Shown: positions 1,576 through 45,951 of the stretch, one piece after another
Layout of the letters: the number at the start of each line of letters is the position of its first letter
Position numbering within the stretch: position 1 is the first letter of the stretch
Source: Escherichia coli
GTDB taxonomy: Bacteria > Pseudomonadota > Gammaproteobacteria > Enterobacterales > Enterobacteriaceae
DNA length: 64,000 nucleotides
Strand: one strand, 5' to 3'
Assembly: GCF_030013595.1 (NCBI RefSeq)
Contig: NZ_CP122768.1
Program-made: the position numbers and the translations under genes
Notes under the pieces: model-generated
Seen by the model: the letters and a program-made list of their open reading frames with translations, nothing else
Told to the model about the DNA's origin: nothing
Database searches by the model: none

Positions 1576-2520
1576 ATGCTAACATTTTTTATTGGCGATT
1601 TATTGCCTATTATCGTAATCATGCTGTTGGGTTATTTTAGCGGCAGACGAGAAACTTTTTCAGAAGATCAAGCCCGGGCATTTAATAAACTGGTATTAAA
1701 CTACGCTCTTCCTGCGGCTCTATTTGTATCTATTACCCGAGCAAACAGGGAAATGATTTTTGCGGACACTCGTCTGACCCTTGTATCACTTGTGGTTATT
1801 GTCGGATGTTTCTTTTTCTCCTGGTTCGGTTGCTACAAATTTTTTAAACGTACTCATGCAGAAGCAGCAGTATGTGCATTAATTGCAGGTTCACCTACCA
1901 TTGGATTCCTGGGATTTGCAGTTCTCGATCCTATTTATGGTGATTCCGTATCAACAGGTTTAGTGGTAGCAATTATTTCAATTATCGTTAACGCAATTAC
2001 TATTCCTATTGGTCTGTATTTGCTGAATCCCTCCTCAGGAGCGGATGGTAAGAAGAATAGTAATCTGAGCGCATTAATTTCTGCGGCAAAGGAGCCAGTA
2101 GTATGGGCACCTGTTCTGGCAACGATCCTGGTGTTGGTTGGGGTAAAAATTCCGGCAGCATGGGACCCAACCTTTAATCTGATTGCGAAGGCTAACTCAG
2201 GGGTAGCGGTATTCGCTGCGGGGTTGACTCTGGCTGCACATAAATTCGAGTTCAGTGCCGAAATTGCTTATAACACCTTCCTGAAGCTAATTCTGATGCC
2301 ACTGGCGCTGCTTCTCGTTGGTATGGCATGTCATTTGAACAGCGAACATTTGCAGATGATGGTACTGGCAGGCGCCTTACCGCCGGCATTCTCCGGAATC
2401 ATTATTGCCAGCCGGTTTAATGTCTACACCCGCACTGGTACAGCGTCACTGGCTGTGAGCGTACTGGGCTTTGTCGTCACGGCTCCTTTGTGGATTTATG
2501 TCAGTCGACTGGTTTCATAA
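1576..2520 (+). CDS. yfdV: AEC-family membrane transporter YfdV
   Basis: 314-aa highly hydrophobic multi-helix ORF; synteny oxc-yfdV-yfdE. Confidence 0.8.
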
Positions 2521-2522
2521 TT

Positions 2523-2531
2523 AATCATGTT
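2523..2531. repeat. IS1 target-site duplication, left copy (aatcatgtt)
   Basis: Identical 9-mer immediately flanks both IS1 ends. Confidence 0.85.
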
Positions 2532-2546
2532 GGTAATGACTCCAAC

Positions 2547-3050
2547 TTACTGATAGTGTTTTATGTTCAGATAATGCCCGATGACCTTGTCATGCAGCTC
2601 CACCGATTTTGAGAACGACAGTGACTTCCGTCCCAGCCTTGCCAGATGTTGTCTCAGATTCAGGTTATGCCGCTCAATGCGCTGAGTATAACGCTTGCTG
2701 ATAACGTGCAGCTTTCCCTTCAGGCGTGATTCATACAGCGGCCAGCCATCCGTCATCCATACCACGACCTCAAAGGCCGACAGCAGGCTCAGAAGACGCT
2801 CCAGTGTGGCCAGAGTGCGTTCACCGAAGACGTGCGCCACAACCGTCCTCCGCATCCTGTCATACGCGTAAAACAGCCAGCGCTGACGTGATTTAGCACC
2901 GACGTAGCCCCACTGTTCGTCCATTTCAGCGCAGACAATCACATCACTGCCCGGTTGTATGCGCGAGGTTACCGACTGCGGCCTGAGTTTTTTAAGTGGC
3001 GGAAAATCGTGTTGAGGCCAACGCCAATAATGCGTGCACTGGCGCGACAT
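2547..3050 (-). CDS. insB: IS1 transposase InsB
   Basis: 167-aa ORF matching IS1 InsB, -1 frame relative to insA (InsAB' frameshift arrangement). Confidence 0.9.
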
Positions 3051-3244
3051 CCGACGCCATTCATGGCCATATCAATGATTTTCTGGTGCGTACCGGGCTG
3101 AGAGGCGGCGTAAGTGAACTGTAGTTGCCATGTTTTACGGCAGTGAGAGCAGAGATAGCGCTGATGTCCGGCGGTGCTTTTGCCGTTACGCACCACCCCG
3201 TCAGTAGCTGAACAGGAGGGACAGCTGATAGAAACAGAAGCCAC
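2969..3244 (-). CDS. insA: IS1 InsA (zinc-finger transposition inhibitor)
   Basis: 91-aa [43 protein letters not shown]... Confidence 0.9.
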
Positions 3245-3299
3245 TGGAGCACCTCAAAAACACCATCATACACTAAATCAGTAAGTTGGCAGCATCACC

Positions 3300-3308
3300 A
3301 ATCATGTT
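3300..3308. repeat. IS1 target-site duplication, right copy (aatcatgtt)
   Basis: Identical 9-mer to 2523..2531. Confidence 0.85.
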
Positions 3309-3370
3309 ATTGATTTTACATAAATGCCGAAGTGTCTTTTCACCTTCGGCTTTTTTCAAGGCATAAGCAA

Positions 3371-4516
3371 ATGACAAATAATGAATGCAAAGGGCCGTTT
3401 GAAGGCTTATTAGTTATCGATATGACACATGTCCTTAATGGACCTTTCGGAACTCAACTTCTTTGTAATATGGGCGCAAGGGTAATTAAAGTTGAGCCGC
3501 CGGGTCATGGTGATGATACCCGCACATTTGGTCCCTATGTGGATGGACAGTCACTCTATTACAGTTTTATTAATCATGGCAAAGAGAGTGTGGTTCTTGA
3601 TTTAAAGAATGATCACGATAAAAGTATATTTATAAATATGCTTAAACAAGCTGATGTATTAGCTGAGAATTTTCGCCCAGGTACAATGGAAAAACTGGGG
3701 TTTTCATGGGAAACGCTACAAGAAATCAACCCGCGTCTCATCTATGCTTCATCGTCAGGTTTTGGGCATACCGGCCCGCTAAAAGATGCTCCAGCCTACG
3801 ATACCATCATTCAGGCAATGAGCGGGATAATGATGGAAACAGGGTACCCTGATGCTCCGCCAGTGCGCGTGGGTACCTCTCTTGCGGATTTATGTGGCGG
3901 TGTCTATTTATTCAGTGGAATAGTGAGTGCACTTTATGGCCGCGAAAAGAGCCAGAGAGGGGCGCATGTCGATATAGCGATGTTTGATGCCACGCTGAGT
4001 TTTCTGGAGCATGGTCTGATGGCATATATTGCGACAGGGAAGTCACCACAACGCCTGGGAAATCGCCATCCCTACATGGCACCTTTTGATGTTTTTGATA
4101 CTCAGGATAAGCCGATTACTATTTGTTGTGGTAATGACAAGCTTTTTTCTGCGTTATGCCAGGCACTGGATCTGACGGAGCTGGTTGATGATCCCCGATT
4201 TATCAGCAATATTTTACGCGTACAAAACCAGGCTATTCTTAAACAATATATTGAGCGAACGTTAAAAACGCAGGCAGCTGAAGTTTGGTTAGCCAAAATA
4301 CATGAAGTTGGTGTGCCCGTCGCGCCGTTATTAAGTGTGGCTGAGGCCATTAATTTGCCACAAACTCAGGCGAGAAATATGTTGATTGAAGCCGGAGGAA
4401 TAATGATGCCAGGTAATCCGATAAAAATCAGCGGCTGCGCGGACCCGCATGTTATGCCGGGAGCGGCAACGCTCGACCAGCATGGGGAACAAATTCGCCA
4501 GGAGTTCTCATCATAA
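3371..4516 (+). CDS. yfdE: Family III CoA-transferase (acetyl-CoA:oxalate CoA-transferase YfdE)
   Basis: Translation MTNNECKGPFEGLLVIDMTHVLNGPFGTQLLCNMGARVIKVEPPG... is CaiB/BaiF family; start chosen at internal ATG of the 394-aa ORF. Confidence 0.8.
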   Translation: MTNNECKGPFEGLLVIDMTHVLNGPFGTQLLCNMGARVIKVEPPGHGDDTRTFGPYVDGQSLYYSFINHGKESVVLDLKNDHDKSIFINMLKQADVLAENFRPGTMEKLGFSWETLQEINPRLIYASSSGFGHTGPLKDAPAYDTIIQAMSGIMMETGYPDAPPVRVGTSLADLCGGVYLFSGIVSALYGREKSQRGAHVDIAMFDATLSFLEHGLMAYIATGKSPQRLGNRHPYMAPFDVFDTQDKPITICCGNDKLFSALCQALDLTELVDDPRFISNILRVQNQAILKQYIERTLKTQAAEVWLAKIHEVGVPVAPLLSVAEAINLPQTQARNMLIEAGGIMMPGNPIKISGCADPHVMPGAATLDQHGEQIRQEFSS

Positions 4517-23533: not shown

Positions 23534-23845
23534 TTAGGCGGCTGATGTTTCTTCTTTCAGGCTTTCGAGATATTTACGTGGGTCGTCGTAACATTGGCAT
23601 TCGCTGTACCAATCCACCCAGCGATCAGTAAGCCCCACCTCTGATAAATCTTCATCGGTAAGGCTCTCATCCCACATCTCAAGGCCGTTAGCATTGCAGT
23701 AATCAGGCTTGATGTTGTTGTCATACTGAAAGGCGTCATAATCAGCCAGTGCGTCCATCAGGCGAACACCCTCTTCAACACTTGCCACTTCTACAATGAA
23801 CGGCTTCATAGGTACTTGCGGGATATGCCAGACACGTAATTTCAT
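23534..23845 (-). CDS. Hypothetical early protein (position of lambda ea10)
   Basis: 103-aa acidic Cys-containing ORF co-oriented in the pL operon. Confidence 0.45.
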   Translation of the reverse strand: MKLRVWHIPQVPMKPFIVEVASVEEGVRLMDALADYDAFQYDNNIKPDYCNANGLEMWDESLTDEDLSEVGLTDRWVDWYSECQCYDDPRKYLESLKEETSAA

Positions 23846-24685: not shown

Positions 24686-24958
24686 TCATCTTGCTGTCAG
24701 CTGTTTGGATTTCCTGTAGCCTGCCGCGTAAATGGCTACATTTGGAAGACAAGTTGAGCCTTCATATTTTCTGGTCAACGTTGTCAGTGTTATTACTTCT
24801 GCTCTCATTACTGGTTTGCGTTTGCATTGTAAGACCACTCGTGAAGGGGTTGGCCTGTGTAGCTTGTCAGAGCTGATCGCCTCCTGACTTTGCAGGTTTG
24901 CACGACGAGCTCTACGGCGAGAAGCTGCGGTGCCTTTAAATTCTGTTTTTCTGGACAT
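24686..24958 (-). CDS. N-like transcription antiterminator (arginine-rich motif; P22 gp24-like C-terminus)
   Basis: Arg-rich motif ASRRRARRA near the N-terminus; C-terminus ...VAIYAAGYRKSKQLTAR resembles P22 gp24; start set at internal Met. Confidence 0.65.
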   Translation of the reverse strand: MSRKTEFKGTAASRRRARRANLQSQEAISSDKLHRPTPSRVVLQCKRKPVMRAEVITLTTLTRKYEGSTCLPNVAIYAAGYRKSKQLTAR

Positions 24959-25397
24959 AGATTCCTCCCGAATAAACTTTGGCGATGCAATCTCGAAGCT
25001 CCTCCTGAGACGGTTGCTTCGGCATTGCATCCCACAGCTTATATGGTTGGGTGATCTGGCTTTTCAGCCACGTAGTCGAGTGTTCGACGTTGTTTAAAGA
25101 GCCTGCCAGTCTGCTCCGTTTGGCTTACAGCGTCCTGCTGACGGTTAAATAGTACGATATGTACTTTATTGGGTCAATACAATTTGTTCTAAAATGGGGT
25201 GATTTTTTATAACGCTTTGTATTTAATAGTGTTGTTTTTTAGCGTGGGTGTATCGCCTCGGCGATGTAAGGAGAGATCAGAATTGCGTGGTTTAGTGAGT
25301 TGTATCTATTTATTTTTCAATAAATACATTTGGTTATGTGTCTTTAGGTGGGGGCGTGAGGCAAAGAAAACCCGGCTCGGTGGCCGGGTTGATGGGA

Positions 25398-26255
25398 TTA
25401 TCGTTTATTTCTTTGATGTTTCTTTGCTGACTCAGCTTGAGTGTTTCCATACCTGCGTTTACCGCTATTGTTTTTTCCTCTAGGCTTGCCTTTTTTTCGA
25501 TCTTCCCACCAGTCAGGTGCCGGGTCTGGCTCAACATGTAAAGCATCGGCAAGTCCTGATATCAAGCTGTATGACTGAACTCCATCAATGTGCTCTGACA
25601 GTGATGGGGTAACATTCTGTCTTAGTGGATCAAGAATAAAATCAATACCTTTAATTCTGGCGTGTTTGGCGGCAGGCACAAAGTCTGAGTCCCCAGCAAC
25701 AAGGACAATTACATCAACAAGTTTTTCATAAGCTAAAGTCGTGATATCCATCCCTAGCTTGATATCAACTTGTTTTTGTTTGATGTCATAGTAAAAATCA
25801 TCATTTGTCAGTTCATCCCATTTTTTCGTTCCTTTCATCAGAGCATCAAGGGAGAATGTAGTTAGTTGCCATCGCTTATTATCAACAAGATTCCCTAATC
25901 TTAAGGCTGTTTTTCGAGTTTTTCTTAACTCTTCATGCAGCTCCGTTCTCAGAATATATGATTTTTCGAGTTTGAAATTCTTGCGACCAGGCGTCTTATT
26001 GCCAGGCTCAGGAAGTGGAAGGCGTGTTTGAATGTCGAGTGGTGGACAGTCATAGAAGTAAATTCTATAAAGCTCAAGCGGTTCCCTACGTTCTTGTGAT
26101 TGACGTTTTCCATTAAGATGGGAAAGAACCATTGACCATATTACTTTCATTATGCATTGCGCAGTCAGTTCATGCTCGGCGAAGTGTTTACGATGCGTAG
26201 CATGAACACGCTGCATGAAAAAACCCGCATCAATTAAAATTGCTGCTTTCTTCAT
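25398..26255 (-). CDS. NYN-domain (LabA/PIN-like) putative nuclease, in the position lambda uses for rexAB
   Basis: 285 aa; N-terminal MKKAAILIDAGFF and VIVLVAGDSDFVPAAKHARIKGIDFIL motifs typical of NYN domains; lies between cI and the pL/N region. Confidence 0.65.
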   Translation of the reverse strand: MKKAAILIDAGFFMQRVHATHRKHFAEHELTAQCIMKVIWSMVLSHLNGKRQSQERREPLELYRIYFYDCPPLDIQTRLPLPEPGNKTPGRKNFKLEKSYILRTELHEELRKTRKTALRLGNLVDNKRWQLTTFSLDALMKGTKKWDELTNDDFYYDIKQKQVDIKLGMDITTLAYEKLVDVIVLVAGDSDFVPAAKHARIKGIDFILDPLRQNVTPSLSEHIDGVQSYSLISGLADALHVEPDPAPDWWEDRKKGKPRGKNNSGKRRYGNTQAESAKKHQRNKR

Positions 26256-26263
26256 AAGAGTCC

Positions 26264-26323
26264 CAAAAAAATAGCCCAGAGCCGTTATGCAGATATTAAC
26301 AATTGTCTGCGAACGGGGCTGGG
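26264..26323 (-). terminator. Hairpin + T-run (minus strand) between the cI stop and the NYN gene start
   Basis: Inverted repeat gcccagagccgtt...aacggggctgggc followed on the minus strand by TTTTTTT. Confidence 0.45.
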
Positions 26324-26382
26324 CTTGGTTTAATTAATCTATGCCAAGTTGACTGTGCCGTCAACATAAAACTTACTTCCTA

Positions 26383-27042
26383 TCACCCAAACGTCTCTTC
26401 AGGCCACTGACTAGCGATAACTTTCCCCACAACGGAACAACTCTCATTGCATGGGATCATTGGGTATTGTGGGTTTAGTGGCTGTAGAAACACCTGACCG
26501 CTATCCCTGATCAGTTTCTTGAAGGTAAACTCATCACCACCAAGTCTGGCTATACAGAAATCGCCTGGCTCAACAGCCTGCTCAGGGTCAACCAGAATTA
26601 ACATCCCGTCAGGAAAGCTGGGCTTGGATCCTGTTGGTGCGGTCATGGAATTACCTTCAACCTCAAGCCAGAATGCAGAGCCACTGGCTTTTTTGGTTGT
26701 GCTTACCAATCTCTCCGCATCGCCTTTGGTAAAGGTTCTGAGTTCTGGAGAGAACATCCCAGCCTGAACATGAGAAAATACAGGGTACTCATATTGTTTT
26801 TTAACTGGGGCCGATGAGTATTCGCCAACAGGTGAAAATGTCCCGTCGTGGTTGAATGATATGTTATCAATACCAAGGTATTTAAACACCACACCAATAT
26901 CACTAAGAGATGGATGACGAGATCCGCGCAACCAGTGTCCAATCCCACCCTGCGTCATACCTAGCTCTTCGGCTAACTTCTCTTGAGTTATGCCGAGCTC
27001 TTTCATTCTGGATCTAGCCAGTTCATACCATTTCATTTTCAT
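26383..27042 (-). CDS. cI: cI-type prophage repressor (HTH_XRE + S24 LexA-like autopeptidase)
   Basis: N-terminal HTH (…[25 protein letters not shown]…) and C-terminal S24 peptidase-like domain; start could also be 27084 or 27036. Confidence 0.85.
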
Positions 27043-28738: not shown

Positions 28739-29436
28739 AAAACATCGCCGCACAGATGGTTAACTTTGACCGTGAGCAGATGCGTCGGATCGCCAACAAC
28801 ATGCCGGAACAGTACGACGAAAAGCCGCAGGTACAACAGGTAGCGCAGATCATCAATGGTGTGTTCAGCCAGTTACTGGCAACTTTCCCGGCGAGCCAGG
28901 CTAACCGGGACCAGAACGAACTGAACGAAATCCGCCGCCAGTGGGTGCTGGCTTTCCGGGAAAACGGGATCACCACGATGGAACAGGTTAACGCAGGAAT
29001 GCGCGTAGCCCGTCGGCAGAATCGACCATTTCTGCCATCACCCGGGCAGTTTGTTGCATGGTGCCGGGAAGAAGCATCCGTTACCGCCGGACTGCCAAAC
29101 GTCAGCGAGCTGGTTGATATGGTTTACGAGTATTGCCGGAAGCGAGGCCTGTATCCGGATGCGGAGTCTTATCCGTGGAAATCAAACGCGCACTACTGGC
29201 TGGTTACCAACCTGTATCAGAACATGCGGGCCAATGCGCTTACTGATGCGGAATTACGCCGTAAGGCCGCAGATGAGCTTGTCCATATGACTGCGAGAAT
29301 TAACCGTGGTGAGGCGATCCCTGAACCAGTAAAACAACTTCCTGTCATGGGCGGTAGACCTCTAAATCGTGCACAGGCTCTGGCGAAGATCGCAGAAATC
29401 AAAGCTAAGTTCGGACTGAAAGGAGCAAGTGTATGA
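28735..29436 (+). CDS. P: Replication protein P (DnaB helicase loader)
   Basis: 233-aa ORF MKNIAAQMVNFDREQMRRIANNMPEQYDEKPQVQQ...; overlaps O stop. Confidence 0.85.
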   Translation: MKNIAAQMVNFDREQMRRIANNMPEQYDEKPQVQQVAQIINGVFSQLLATFPASQANRDQNELNEIRRQWVLAFRENGITTMEQVNAGMRVARRQNRPFLPSPGQFVAWCREEASVTAGLPNVSELVDMVYEYCRKRGLYPDAESYPWKSNAHYWLVTNLYQNMRANALTDAELRRKAADELVHMTARINRGEAIPEPVKQLPVMGGRPLNRAQALAKIAEIKAKFGLKGASV

Positions 29437-29723
29437 CGGGCAAAGAGGCAATTATTCATTACCTGGGGACGCATAATAGCTTCTGTGCGCCGGACGTTGC
29501 CGCGCTAACAGGCGCAACAGTAACCAGCATAAATCAGGCCGCGGCTAAAATGGCACGGGCAGGTCTTCTGGTTATCGAAGGTAAGGTCTGGCGAACGGTG
29601 TATTACCGGTTTGCTACCAGGGAAGAACGGGAAGGAAAGATGAGCACGAACCTGATTTTTAAGGAGTGTCGCCAGAGTGCCGCGATGAAACGGGTATTGG
29701 CGGTATATGGAGTTAAAAGATGA
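29433..29723 (+). CDS. ren: Ren (protection from Rex exclusion)
   Basis: 96-aa ORF MTGKEAIIHYLGTHNSFCAPDVAALTGATVTSINQAAAKMARAGLLVIEGK..., matching lambda Ren as recalled. Confidence 0.8.
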   Translation: MTGKEAIIHYLGTHNSFCAPDVAALTGATVTSINQAAAKMARAGLLVIEGKVWRTVYYRFATREEREGKMSTNLIFKECRQSAAMKRVLAVYGVKR

Positions 29724-32871: not shown

Positions 32872-33056
32872 ACGCCACAATTCAAACGATACCAGAACTT
32901 CTTATCCAGACACGAGGCAATCAGACCGAAGTGGCGAGGAGGCTTTCCTGTGCAAGAGGAACAGTGCTCAAGTACAACAGAGACAGCAAAGGCGAGCGTC
33001 ACGCAATAGTTAACGGCGTCCTGATGGTCAAACAGGGCAAGAGGGGAAGACGATGA
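32868..33056 (+). CDS. ninH: NinH-like small HTH protein
   Basis: 62 aa ...GNQTEVARRLSCARGTVLKY...; immediately precedes Q. Confidence 0.55.
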   Translation: MNATIQTIPELLIQTRGNQTEVARRLSCARGTVLKYNRDSKGERHAIVNGVLMVKQGKRGRR

Positions 33057-33676
33057 GACTCGAAAGCGTAGCTAAATTTCATTCTCCAAAAAGCCCGATG
33101 ATGAGCGACTCACCACGGGCTACAGCTTCTGACTCTCTTTCCGGTACTGATGTGATGGCTGCTATGGGGATGGCGCAATCACAAGCCGGATTCGGTATGG
33201 CTGCATTCTGCGGTAAGCATGAACTCAGCCAGAACGACAAACAAAAGGCTATCAACTATCTGATGCAATTTGCACACAAGGTATCGGGGAAATACTGTGG
33301 TGTGGCAAAGCTTGAAGGAAATACTAAGGCAAAGGTACTGCAAGTGCTCGCAACATTCGCTTATGCGGATTATTGCCGTAGTGCCGCGACGCCGGGCGCA
33401 AGATGCAGAGATTGCCACGGTACAGGCCGTGCGGTTGATATAGCCAAAACAGAGCAGTGGGGGAGAGTTGTTGAGAAAGAGTGCGGAAGATGCAAAGGTG
33501 TCGGCTATTCAAGAATGCCAGCAAGCGCCGCATATCGCGCTGTAACGATGCTAATCCCAAACCTTACTCAACCCACCTGGTCACGCACTGTTAAGCCGCT
33601 GTATGACGCTCTGGTGGTGCAATGCCACAAAGAAGAGTCAATCGCAGACAACATTTTGAATGCGGTCACACGTTAG
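33053..33676 (+). CDS. Q: Late-gene antiterminator Q (lambda-type)
   Basis: 207-aa ORF MRLESVAKFHSPKSPMMSDSPRATASDSLSGTDVMAAMGMAQSQAGFG...; followed by PR' and tR'. Confidence 0.9.
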   Translation: MRLESVAKFHSPKSPMMSDSPRATASDSLSGTDVMAAMGMAQSQAGFGMAAFCGKHELSQNDKQKAINYLMQFAHKVSGKYCGVAKLEGNTKAKVLQVLATFAYADYCRSAATPGARCRDCHGTGRAVDIAKTEQWGRVVEKECGRCKGVGYSRMPASAAYRAVTMLIPNLTQPTWSRTVKPLYDALVVQCHKEESIADNILNAVTR

Positions 33677-33747: not shown

Positions 33748-33888
33748 TGACCCAACGATGGGTTAATTCGCTCGTTGTGGTAGTGAGATGAAAAGAGGCG
33801 GCGCTTACTACCGATTCCGCCTAGTTGGTCACTTCGACGTATCGTCTGGAACTCCAACCATAGCAGGCTGAGAGGTCTGCAAAATGCA

Positions 33889-33948
33889 ATCCCGAAACAG
33901 TTCGCAGGTAATAGTTAGAGCCTGCACAACGGTTTCGGGATTTTTTAT
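33889..33948 (+). terminator. tR' terminator (end of 6S-RNA-like late leader)
   Basis: Inverted repeat aatcccgaaac...gtttcgggatt followed by TTTTTT, about 190 nt downstream of PR'. Confidence 0.7.
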
Positions 33949-33950
33949 TT

Positions 33951-34025
33951 GGGTCAGTCGTATAAAGGTCATTACGGAAGGCTGTTAACCTTCTTATCGT
34001 GGTTCGAGTCCACGCTGTCCCGCCA
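33951..34025 (+). tRNA. Candidate phage-encoded tRNA (anticodon GTT, Asn-like); atypical D-arm and one acceptor-stem mismatch
   Basis: Manual fold: acceptor GGGTCAG/CTGTCCC, anticodon stem GAAGG/CCTTC with loop CTGTTAA, T-arm CGTGG-TTCGAGT-CCACG, 3' GCCA. Confidence 0.45.
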
Positions 34026-34030
34026 AATAT

Positions 34031-34106
34031 GCTGGTTTAGCTCCAATGGTAGAGCGGTCGCCTTGTAAGCGAATGGGTAGCGGTTCAAGTCCGTTAACCA
34101 GCACCA
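34031..34106 (+). tRNA. Candidate phage-encoded tRNA (anticodon TGT, Thr-like)
   Basis: Manual fold: acceptor GCTGGTT/AACCAGC, D-arm GCTC-CAATGGTA-GAGC, anticodon loop CTTGTAA, T-arm AGCGG-TTCAAGT-CCGTT, 3' ACCA. Confidence 0.5.
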
Positions 34107-35941: not shown

Positions 35942-36484
35942 ATGAATTATCCAACTATCGTTAACGGCATCGATTTCCGAGAACTGATTTTTGTGGCAAA
36001 CAACGATCCGGTTACAGATTCTTTTATGGTGGCAAAAGCATTTGGAAAGCTGCCGAAGAACGTGGTTCGTGACATTGAGCGAACCATAGAAGCTTGCCCT
36101 CCTGAGTTTGATACAAAGCTCAACTTTGAGCTTTGCTATAAAAACAATGAGTTACAGAATGGTAAGCCGCAAAAATTCTACCGTCTACGCAAGGATGGGT
36201 TGATGCTTTTGGTTATGTCCTACACCAAAAAAGAAGCAATGCGTATCAAAATTGCTTACATCAACGCATTTAACTGGATGTACGCCATGCTTCAGGTTGG
36301 TCATCGTCAATTTGAAGAAGAGAGAAATGCCGTAATGCTGGAGTACATGAAAGAGAAGGATGTTGCCAGCATGTCAGGTCGCCTGCTAAATCGCTGGGGC
36401 AAAATTAAGAAGCCACAGTTGCTGGCTAGAATTGAACGCCTTGAACAGCACGGGCAAACCGTAATCCCCGGACTCATCAATTAA
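35942..36484 (+). CDS. Rha-family phage regulatory protein (second copy of the fold in this prophage)
   Basis: 180 aa MNYPTIVNGIDFRELIFVANNDPVTDSFMVAKAFGKLPKNVVRDIERTIE...; between the lysis cassette and terminase, as in P22. Confidence 0.6.
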   Translation: MNYPTIVNGIDFRELIFVANNDPVTDSFMVAKAFGKLPKNVVRDIERTIEACPPEFDTKLNFELCYKNNELQNGKPQKFYRLRKDGLMLLVMSYTKKEAMRIKIAYINAFNWMYAMLQVGHRQFEEERNAVMLEYMKEKDVASMSGRLLNRWGKIKKPQLLARIERLEQHGQTVIPGLIN

Positions 36485-44532: not shown

Positions 44533-45951
44533 ATGCCGATTCAGCAACTTCCGCTTATGAAAGGTGTCGGCAAAGACTTTCGAAACGCCGACTATATCGA
44601 CTATCTGCCAGTGAATATGCTGGCTACACCCAAAGAAATCCTGAACAGCAGCGGATATCTTCGCTCATTCCCTGGCATTGCCAAACGCTCTGATGTGAAC
44701 GGTGTATCTCGCGGCGTCGAGTACAACATGGCGCAGAATGCTGTTTATCGTGTGTGTGGTGGCAAGCTGTACAAAGGAGAAAGTGAAGTCGGTGACGTCG
44801 CCGGAAGTGGTCGCGTATCAATGGCGCATGGTCGTACATCTCAGGCGATAGGTGTTAATGGTCAACTGGTCGAGTATCGCTATGATGGCACGATTAAAAC
44901 CGTCTCAAACTGGCCTACAGATAGTGGATTCACTCAGTATGAGCTAGGTTCGGTTCGTGACATTACGCGCTTACGTGGGCGTTATGCGTGGTCAAAAGAC
45001 GGCACTGATTCATGGTTTATCACTGATCTTGAAGACGAATCGCATCCTGACCGCTACAGCGCACAATATCGTGCCGAGTCTCAGCCGGACGGCATCATCG
45101 GCATCGGCACATGGAGAGACTTCATCGTCTGCTTTGGTTCATCGACGATTGAATATTTCTCCCTGACTGGTGCAACCACCGTTGGTGCTGCTTTGTATGT
45201 CGCACAGCCATCACTGATGGTGCAGAAAGGCATTGCCGGGACTTACTGCAAAACGCCGTTTGCTGACTCGTATGCGTTCATCAGCAATCCGGCAACAGGT
45301 GCGCCGTCTGTATACATCATCGGCTCCGGTCAGGTATCACCAATCGCCAGCGCGAGCATTGAGAAAATACTACGCTCCTACACTGCTGATGAACTGGCTG
45401 AAGGCGTGATGGAATCGCTGCGGTTTGATGCGCATGAGTTGCTGATTATCCATCTTCCGCGCCATGTTCTCGTATACGACGCATCTTCAAGCGCCAATGG
45501 TCCGCAATGGTGTGTATTGAAAACAGGCCTGTATGACGATGTGTACCGCGCTATCGACTTCATTTACGAAGGCAATCAGATAACGTGCGGCGATAAGCTG
45601 GAATCGGTGATCGGGAAATTGCAGTTCGATATCAGCAGCCAGTACGACAAGCAACAGGAACACCTGCTGTTTACTCCGTTGTTCAAAGCGGATAACGCCA
45701 GATGCTTTGATCTGGAGGTGGAATCATCGACTGGTGTTGCGCAGTATGCTGACCGCCTGTTCCTCTCTGCAACCACTGACGGCATCAATTACGGTCGTGA
45801 GCAGATGATTGAGCAGAATGAACCGTTCGTTTACGACAAACGCGTTTTGTGGAAGCGAGTTGGGCGCATCAGGAAAAATGTCGGCTTCAAATTGCGCGTT
45901 ATCACTAAGTCACCTGTCACTCTGTCAGGCTGCCAGATAAGGATTGAGTAA
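44533..45951 (+). CDS. Tail hub protein (P22 gp10-like)
   Basis: 472 aa; position between gp4-like and the needle. Confidence 0.65.

Follow-up and report, generated by a model that had tools for sequence, protein, structure and literature searches.

A NYN-family nuclease gene beside a cI-like repressor in Escherichia coli is carried by an exchangeable cassette with its own promoter and a conserved hairpin leader RNA

The stretch of DNA considered here, called the window throughout, covers 64,000 nucleotides of Escherichia coli (contig NZ_CP122768.1 of assembly GCF_030013595.1) and includes a lambda-type immunity region with an unusual occupant. The open reading frame (ORF) that follows the cI-like repressor, between cI and oL/pL and in the orientation of cI, sits where lambda carries rexA and rexB, and an initial annotation made from the letters alone had read it as a NYN/PIN-like nuclease gene in the rexAB slot, separated from cI by a hairpin and a T-run. 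All of this was borne out: the Pfam NYN profile PF01936 matched the protein (E 1.1e-8), position and orientation agree with rexAB, phages with the same cI hold other cargo there, and a three-tier hairpin with a run of seven U residues lies between the two genes. What was not foreseen is that the hairpin belongs with the nuclease gene rather than with the junction. Promoter, hairpin leader and ORF recur together as one unit in phages, plasmids and islands, and the following features, all on the minus strand, define it in the window.

25398..26255, minus strand: ORF of the NYN-family nuclease, 285 amino acids, co-oriented with cI and immediately 3' of it
26265..26325, minus strand: leader RNA, recognized by folding and covariation; the three-tier hairpin (26325-26273) is followed by an A and U7 (26271-26265)
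26336..26364, minus strand: sigma70 promoter from a promoter scan, with -35 TTGACG (26364-26359), a 17-nt spacer and -10 TAGATT (26341-26336)
25395..26381, minus strand: NYN cassette (promoter, leader RNA and ORF), the segment exchanged for other cargo
26383..~27042, minus strand: cI-like LexA/S24 repressor (phrog_4, E 2e-60)

The limits of the cassette could be read from phages that share its neighbor. The cI allele of the window, with a C-terminal half 94% identical in DNA to lambda cI, is also present in Stx2 II, phage 1717, PhiR11_1 and others, and blastn comparison with Stx2 II and PhiR11_1 placed the ends of the swapped segment at 25391/25395 and 26381/26384, so that it starts at the stop codon of cI and ends a few bases beyond that of the NYN ORF. 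In the same slot Stx2 II carries a 173 amino acid ORF, and PhiR11_1 carries a 283 amino acid protein (phrog_23561, unknown function) together with a 163 amino acid protein (PhiR11_1 2022-3402). No PADLOC match was found for this alternative cargo, which is not RexA or RexB by BLAST and falls into PHROGs of unknown function. The 163 amino acid protein reads as hydrophobic and so is probably membrane-bound; the PhiR11_1 pair is sized like RexA/RexB, has no sequence similarity to them, and may be another exclusion pair. Because phages with one cI hold unrelated cargo at exactly this position, the slot is, on these comparisons, a variable moron slot, and the NYN segment itself has the marks of a moron, being precisely present or absent relative to Stx2 II and PhiR11_1 and having a promoter of its own.

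The cassette also turns up apart from the rest of the window. Around 48 Stx2a-converting phages share only 25272..26401 with it, phage ev099 shares the cassette and only the C-terminal half of cI, and the NYN segment is combined with other immunity types too. The cassettes of ev099 and of phages 2B8 and E212 are identical to that of the window. More distant cassettes, from Pantoea and from IMG/VR, share 25486..26365/26371, the similarity beginning exactly at the -35 hexamer and running into the body of the ORF, and therefore the mobile unit consists of the promoter, the leader and the ORF. The surroundings of the unit are varied. A Brenneria prophage and the P22-like Proteus phage Brookers have it right behind an S24 repressor; it lies between Q and the holin gene, on the opposite strand, in lambdoids of Edwardsiella and E. 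albertii; in P. syringae and Halomonas it faces the integrase, in convergent orientation, at the end of the prophage; it sits among toxin–antitoxin (TA) modules on Rep3 plasmids of Acinetobacter; and a Pantoea island carries it. In the P2-like phage phiE202 the NYN gene lies between the integrase and a portal gene with a BrnTA module, and in Streptococcus phage Javan84 between an XRE repressor and the integrase. No conserved protein partner was found in any of these contexts; the NYN gene is always solitary.

Taken by itself, the protein is ordinary and already annotated as a "NYN domain-containing protein". The PF01936 match is partial (residues 158-205), TIGR00288 of NCBIfam matches residues 100-207 with E 5.5e-7, which is below its curated cutoff, and in PHROGs it belongs to phrog_5783 ("unknown function", E 1.5e-119). 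The protein collection searched holds 7035 homologous clusters, all carrying a precomputed PF01936 match; among those listed nearly all are 250-300 amino acids long, with some truncated fragments, and they come from Enterobacterales, Pseudomonas, Halomonas, Shewanella, Proteus, Acinetobacter and other genera. In an alignment of 40 sequences at 41-86% identity, residues D9, D164, D170, D189 and D191 (the last two in a GDSDF motif) are invariant, these five being candidate metal-binding residues, as are R22, H46, R64, R114, K115, R119, H222, D224 and a PxWW motif, with several basic and aromatic residues among the invariant positions. The Lys/Arg-rich tail pointed out in the initial annotation is present in the window protein and varies across the family.

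An insert of roughly 90 residues (about 70-157), specific to this family, splits the NYN core. Neither the single sequence nor the 40-sequence profile found a meaningful match among PDB chains; the three-layer alpha/beta/alpha PIN-like (NYN) fold was recovered by fold comparison alone. In this the family differs from the eukaryotic NYN RNases MARF1 and Regnase-1/ZC3H12A and from the bacterial NYN/LabA protein VPA0982, since insert, PxWW motif and basic tail set it apart and it has no detectable similarity to any PDB chain. The NYN assignment is sound, and because of it the protein is presumably a Mg-dependent (endo)ribonuclease.

Conservation of this kind bears on whether the cassette is a decaying selfish passenger with no current function. 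The idea draws on the state of the ORF in E. coli, where 274 of 5426 complete genomes have a match and just 73 of the 274 have it at full length, and on internally deleted copies. Some 200 E. coli genomes, mainly O157:H7, have a truncated ORF, as in Sakai prophage Sp1 (ECs_0273). The truncated copies, however, are essentially one clonal O157:H7 event, about 50 Stx2a phages share full-length copies at 99.6-100% identity, and the catalytic-type residues stay invariant at 41-86% identity over many genera, so that we give the passenger explanation hardly any credence. In Sakai Sp1 the ORF ends after about 116 residues with promoter and leader intact, and O157:H7 may still make the short RNA, as judged from these intact signals, without the nuclease. 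Stx2a phage EH0505 (11046-11135 and downstream), and likewise AU5Stx1, contains the leader twice, the second time joined to a frameshifted NYN gene with an internal deletion, beside a C-terminal fragment of cI; this second copy is a duplicated, decayed remnant of an immunity region.

The promoter of the cassette is conserved as well. A sigma70-type promoter agreeing with the consensus at 8-12 of 12 positions precedes each of the 21 distinct leaders, with TTGAC at -35 nearly invariant. From the end of the -10 hexamer to the hairpin there are 8-12 nt (17-18 nt in one clade), which leaves about 1-5 nt between predicted start and hairpin (about 10 nt in that clade). In the window transcription is predicted to start near 26329, 3-4 nt before the hairpin, so that by the position of the promoter the transcript would begin essentially at the hairpin itself. 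An inverted repeat overlaps the -35 hexamer as well. In the window it is the dyad TTGACGGCACAGTCAA (26364-26349, minus strand), and TTGAC-N5-9-GTCAA recurs over the -35 in many copies of the cassette, seven further named loci among them. Its form suggests an operator site recognized by a protein dimer; apart from the NYN protein, no regulator is encoded in the cassette.

The hairpin has tiers of 7, 5 and 5 bp, the first two separated by a 2x2 internal loop and the last two by a bulge, and is closed by a 12-nt loop. With its U-run it looks like an intrinsic terminator, and the default product of the promoter would be an RNA of about 64 nt. The alignment of the 21 distinct leaders (A2), analyzed with RNAalifold, gave a consensus structure of 17 bp in which 13 pairs show double compensatory changes. 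Standard pairs fill 97.8% of cells; offsetting the 3' partners by 1-3 columns lowers the figure to 26-44%. In 500 column shuffles the observed values were never attained, be it for percentage paired, for the counts of covarying pairs and of covarying cells, or for the covariation score. With 11 G-U pairs and not a single A-C pair, the alignment indicates selection on the sense-strand RNA and not on a DNA palindrome; a role of the palindrome at the DNA level is disfavored on the same ground. Conservation of the apical loop (12-13 nt, longer than a plain terminator requires, and including an invariant A, U and A) and of the bulged C equals that of the stems, the entropies being 0.71 and 0.60 bits, respectively, compared with 1.5-1.6 in the flanking spacers. 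Such constraint on loop and bulge exceeds the need of a generic terminator.

A covariance model of the leader (R1) gave one strong match 5' of each class-I NYN gene, at 64-98 bits, with 94.4 bits for the window leader and also for that of Sakai Sp1. Each cassette had a single match and no tandem repeats. The leader precedes every homolog of at least 46% identity, and in all contexts compared the same hairpin, with U7-9, lies 14-41 nt 5' of the start codon. Rfam 15 returned no match for the leader or for the lambda tR' terminator discussed below at E<=1, and none for six other loci at E<=0.1. The leader is therefore a new conserved RNA motif in that it is absent from Rfam and, as far as the tools show, undescribed. 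A riboswitch-type leader was considered and set aside, the predicted transcript having no sequence 5' of the hairpin from which another, anti-terminating fold could form. Minimum-free-energy folds of the window (26253-26271, minus strand) and of three other loci have the U-tract paired to codons 2-4, which are A-rich (AAG AAA), or to A-rich sequence close by; in read-through transcripts such modeled pairing could occlude the start region.

These features could be had from a plain attenuator or insulator, in which the leader is nothing but a cis-acting terminator that holds down a potentially harmful nuclease and screens it from transcription coming from upstream, no partnership of RNA and protein exists, and the NYN protein has another role, for example in RNA turnover or processing. 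The structure is that of a textbook intrinsic terminator as stable as lambda tR', morons typically bring their own transcription signals, and in the window the transcripts from cI would be neatly terminated. A generic terminator, however, needs no conserved loop, bulge and internal-loop geometry maintained across Enterobacterales, Pseudomonas, Halomonas and Acinetobacter, and to place a near-consensus promoter right before a strong terminator would be a waste if the short RNA did nothing. The direct abutment of the two suggests that the short RNA itself matters, and we regard the attenuator as unlikely while taking it seriously.

The same hairpin bears on how the rexAB slot should be understood. 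Accessory cargo directly 3' of a prophage repressor is in the classic position for exclusion genes expressed in the lysogen; stk of 933W and bstA of Salmonella phage BTP1 are also accessory cargo right after a repressor. The NYN gene could then be a rexAB-like exclusion gene expressed with cI, mainly by attenuated read-through from PRM, which would suit its position and orientation, the alternative cargo of same-cI phages, and the homologs that follow repressors in four unrelated phage types. The hairpin between cI and the ORF is, in contrast, homologous to tR' and equally stable (-24.7 kcal/mol, compared with -25.5 kcal/mol for the tR' of the window), a conserved promoter lies 3' of the cI stop, the identical promoter-leader-ORF unit is found where no repressor is upstream, including on the strand opposite a late operon, and there is no similarity to RexA or RexB, neither of which gave a tblastn match anywhere in the window. 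Lambda rexAB is co-transcribed with cI, whereas a terminator stands between cI and the ORF of the NYN cassette, which has a promoter of its own and resembles rexAB in neither sequence nor architecture. We consider expression mainly through PRM improbable. Because a hairpin of tR' stability would stop PRM and PRE transcripts before the ORF, the NYN gene is probably insulated from cI transcription and not co-expressed, and location in the rexAB slot does not imply co-expression with the repressor.

The initial annotation had left open attenuated read-through or a separate promoter. The latter was found, near-consensus in every copy, and the former appears unlikely; its treatment of the hairpin as a feature of the cI-NYN junction gave way, the hairpin being a conserved and covarying leader that travels with the NYN gene also at sites without an upstream cI. 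What it observed is confirmed, and what it made of this is partly supported. Judged by context, the NYN gene may plausibly have a role in exclusion or defense.

The relationship to tR' was uncovered by the covariance model, whose one additional match in the window, plus-strand 33870..33959, scored 57.6 bits (E 3e-12) and lies in the late region shown by the following features.

33053..33676, plus strand: Q gene (phrog_127)
33889..33946, plus strand: lambda-type tR' hairpin, 3' of Q and 5' of tRNA-Asn/tRNA-Thr, at the end of the pR' 6S-RNA leader

Lambda's own tR' scored 56.6 bits (44703-44792). In a manual ungapped alignment the leader and tR' hairpins are about 67% identical, and geometry and loop motif are shared, so the hairpin at 33889..33946 is, on sequence and fold, a lambda-type tR' and a homolog of the NYN leader hairpin. 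The homology makes efficient termination at the NYN leader very probable. In lambda, pR' is constitutive and its transcripts end at tR' in lysogens; the product is the abundant 6S RNA, which has been assigned no function (PMC7547250). An IMG/VR scan with a degenerate motif of the inner hairpin yielded 80 readable loci: 20 NYN leaders, of which one had a decayed ORF, and 60 near-identical lambda-type tR', with no third context. Since the NYN leaders are diverse and taxonomically broad and lambda-type tR' is one nearly invariant sequence, we infer that lambda tR' descends from a leader of the NYN type and not the reverse; no relic of a NYN ORF was found downstream of lambda tR' or of the window tR'.

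The two systems, pR'-6S RNA-tR' (and StxS of Stx phages) and the cassette, have in common a homologous hairpin, a promoter followed by a terminator, and a short RNA in lysogens, which for the NYN leader is predicted. They differ in that the lambda leader is about 130 nt long, contains qut and a pause, and is read through in a Q-dependent manner, while the NYN leader has the hairpin at its very start and is followed by one nuclease gene. The likeness raises the thought that the cassette could be a sensor gated by antitermination, the nuclease staying silent until a Q- or N-like antiterminator of an infecting or induced phage allows read-through, tR' being the natural substrate of Q antitermination. 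Between the NYN promoter and the hairpin there is, however, no space for a Q-loading or qut-type pause element, the stretch concerned covaries as a stem, and cassettes occur in Pseudomonas, in Halomonas, on Acinetobacter plasmids and in phages of Bacteroidota and Firmicutes, where a lambda-type Q is not expected. An O121-type Stx2a phage, too, has the cassette and no significant lambda-type tR' match in its first 50 kb, and antitermination gating is accordingly given a very low probability.

At about 35-44% identity the homologs have another leader in the same order of parts: a promoter appropriate to the lineage, a long multi-tier hairpin with a U-run, and the ORF. Such groups were seen in Bacteroidota-type phages, Moraxella, Burkholderia, Streptococcus and Dorea. 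Gut-phage contigs have Bacteroidota-type promoters (TAnnTTTG), Moraxella Mcat4 has TTGACA-17-TATAAT, and Javan84 has TTGACA-17-TAAAAT. A preliminary alignment of the Bacteroidota-group leader supports 15 pairs, four of them with compensatory changes. On distant leaders, and on the leader of the Proteus chromosomal copy, the R1 model scored 10-14 bits at the expected positions, which is not significant, and these leaders are treated as analogous to the class-I leader and not as proven homologs of it. Rfam 15 contains the distant leader class no more than it does class I or tR'. Distant hairpins from proteobacteria and Bacteroidota share a 5' GGC-(A)GUACGC and a 3' GCC-N-A-CC-YUGGGC-U6, and an internal loop (AGUA/GAA) in Moraxella and Burkholderia resembles the sarcin-ricin (loop E) motif. 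A NYN gene also stands alone on the Proteus mirabilis chromosome, behind a promoter of its own and a divergent GC-stem hairpin with U6; it is convergent with glmS and lies about 190 bp from the 3' end of that gene, a region that we take to be that of the Tn7 attachment site.

Taken together, the anatomy of the cassette, the conservation and covariation of its leader, its modular insertion into phage slots and plasmids, the NYN fold and the invariant acidic residues outline a unit in which one RNA accompanies one nuclease. Our preferred reading, held tentatively and with somewhat less than even confidence, is an autonomous mobile moron cassette in which the leader RNA restrains the NYN nuclease, either in the manner of a type III TA system or as an autoregulatory RNA-protein pair. 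Most transcripts would stop at the leader, giving the abundant RNA of about 64 nt, and read-through alone would yield mRNA for the nuclease. The leader RNA would be specifically recognized, most likely by the NYN protein, and so keep the nuclease restrained, serving either as an RNA antitoxin or decoy, following type III logic, or as an autoregulatory site. Should the labile RNA fall, whether by shut-off of host transcription by an infecting phage or by loss of the element, the RNase would be freed and could cleave RNA, with abortive infection or exclusion as the benefit for the lysogen or addiction as that for the element. In the window the leader would in addition end the cI transcript, insulating the nuclease from PRM and PRE. 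A pair of this kind appears most economical because it would account at once for a strong promoter joined to a strong terminator, the conservation of loop and bulge, the universal linkage of RNA and protein, a PIN-like RNase with an extra domain, and carriage by prophages and TA-rich plasmids.

Known type III TA systems (ToxIN, AbiQ, CptIN and TenpIN) offer the closest comparison in layout, having a strong promoter, a structured noncoding RNA, an intrinsic terminator, an ORF for an endoribonuclease, no protein antitoxin, and a home on plasmids and prophages. Their antitoxins, by contrast, are tandem repeats processed by the toxin, while the NYN cassette has a single hairpin that is itself the terminator; the ToxN/AbiQ, CptN and TenpN toxins are not PIN/NYN proteins, while the cassette protein, putatively neutralized by RNA, has the NYN fold. 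VapC of the type II systems is likewise a PIN-like Mg-dependent RNase on mobile elements (as predicted for NYN) and acts on structured RNA, but no VapB-like antitoxin gene lies beside the NYN gene in any context examined. A search of PADLOC-DB v2 gave no significant full-length match to a defense model; weak matches to the NYN core were to HEC-09 (E 2e-4, residues 155-200) and to NYN (E 1.4e-3). HEC-09 is a PADLOC candidate that joins a helix-turn-helix domain to NYN and thus shares the core and not the domain architecture.

Several observations weigh against restraint of the nuclease by its leader. The intact leader with a truncated ORF in the roughly 200 genomes noted above means that the nuclease is dispensable there, and a single hairpin paired with a NYN fold departs from tandem-repeat antitoxins processed by ToxN-like toxins. 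No PADLOC model matches beyond the NYN core, and HEC-09, the one published test of a NYN system, gave no defense against the phages tried (bioRxiv 10.1101/2024.01.29.577857). The ECs0273-ECs0274 intergenic region is absent from the list of Hfq-bound intergenic regions that was searched, and conservation of the loop could come from some other factor, such as RNase III, Hfq/ProQ or RNA polymerase.

A bolder form of the idea would make leader and NYN gene an unrecognized, phylum-spanning RNA-antitoxin system for abortive infection or addiction, resting on one terminator hairpin, with tR' as a natural mimic of the antitoxin. As a decoy, tR' would let lambda-type phages neutralize NYN toxins, or would give NYN-carrying lambdoids immunity from their own nuclease during lytic growth. 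We hold this to be quite improbable, and the O121-type Stx2a phage, with the cassette and no significant lambda-type tR' match in its first 50 kb, counts against the universality of such mimicry. Were it true, 6S RNA would for the first time have a proposed role other than termination.

Whatever its function, the homology ties a much-studied terminator to a mobile nuclease cassette and gives a testable lead on lambda 6S RNA. If restraint by the leader is true, a widespread family, with some 7000 clusters from Proteobacteria, Bacteroidota-type phages and Firmicutes phages, would join prophage immunity or addiction with a single nuclease and a single structured RNA, and could shape superinfection and the ecology of Stx phages, its carriers including about 50 Stx2a-converting phages besides other lambdoid, P22-like and P2-like phages. 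The literature on NYN proteins with prophages, defense or abortive infection yielded no description of this family or its leader. The leader RNA, its presence in every context examined and the homology to tR' are undescribed as far as Rfam, PADLOC and that literature tell.

The remaining features around the cassette belong to the mosaic lambda-type background.

24686..25030, minus strand: gene for an N-like antiterminator (phrog_271)
25149..25177, minus strand: pL-like promoter, TTGACC-17-TACTAT, 5' of the N-like gene
25359..25390 (also given as 25390->25369), minus strand: intrinsic terminator from a terminator scan, directly after the NYN stop codon, in a t_imm-like position
29433..29723, plus strand: ren, in a lambda-type O-P-ren module (phrog_142), 99% identical to lambda Ren by tblastn

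The terminator region is common to Stx2 II and PhiR11_1, which have no NYN gene, and is by this comparison part of the immunity-region backbone, outside the cassette. The presence of ren without rexAB was correctly noticed in the initial annotation, which named protection from Rex exclusion as the known role of ren; ren is part of the O-P-ren replication module of a mosaic genome, and nothing links it to the NYN gene. In the pL operon, 23534-23845 on the minus strand encodes a 103 amino acid protein of phrog_1510, annotated as superinfection exclusion. Genes for tRNA-Asn(GTT) and tRNA-Thr(TGT) at 33951-34106 (plus strand) lie between the tR' hairpin and the lambda-type S/R/Rz lysis genes, a late-leader slot that in some phages holds tRNAs or stx genes. 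Right after Rz, 35942-36484 (plus strand) encodes a 180 amino acid Rha-like regulator or anti-repressor.

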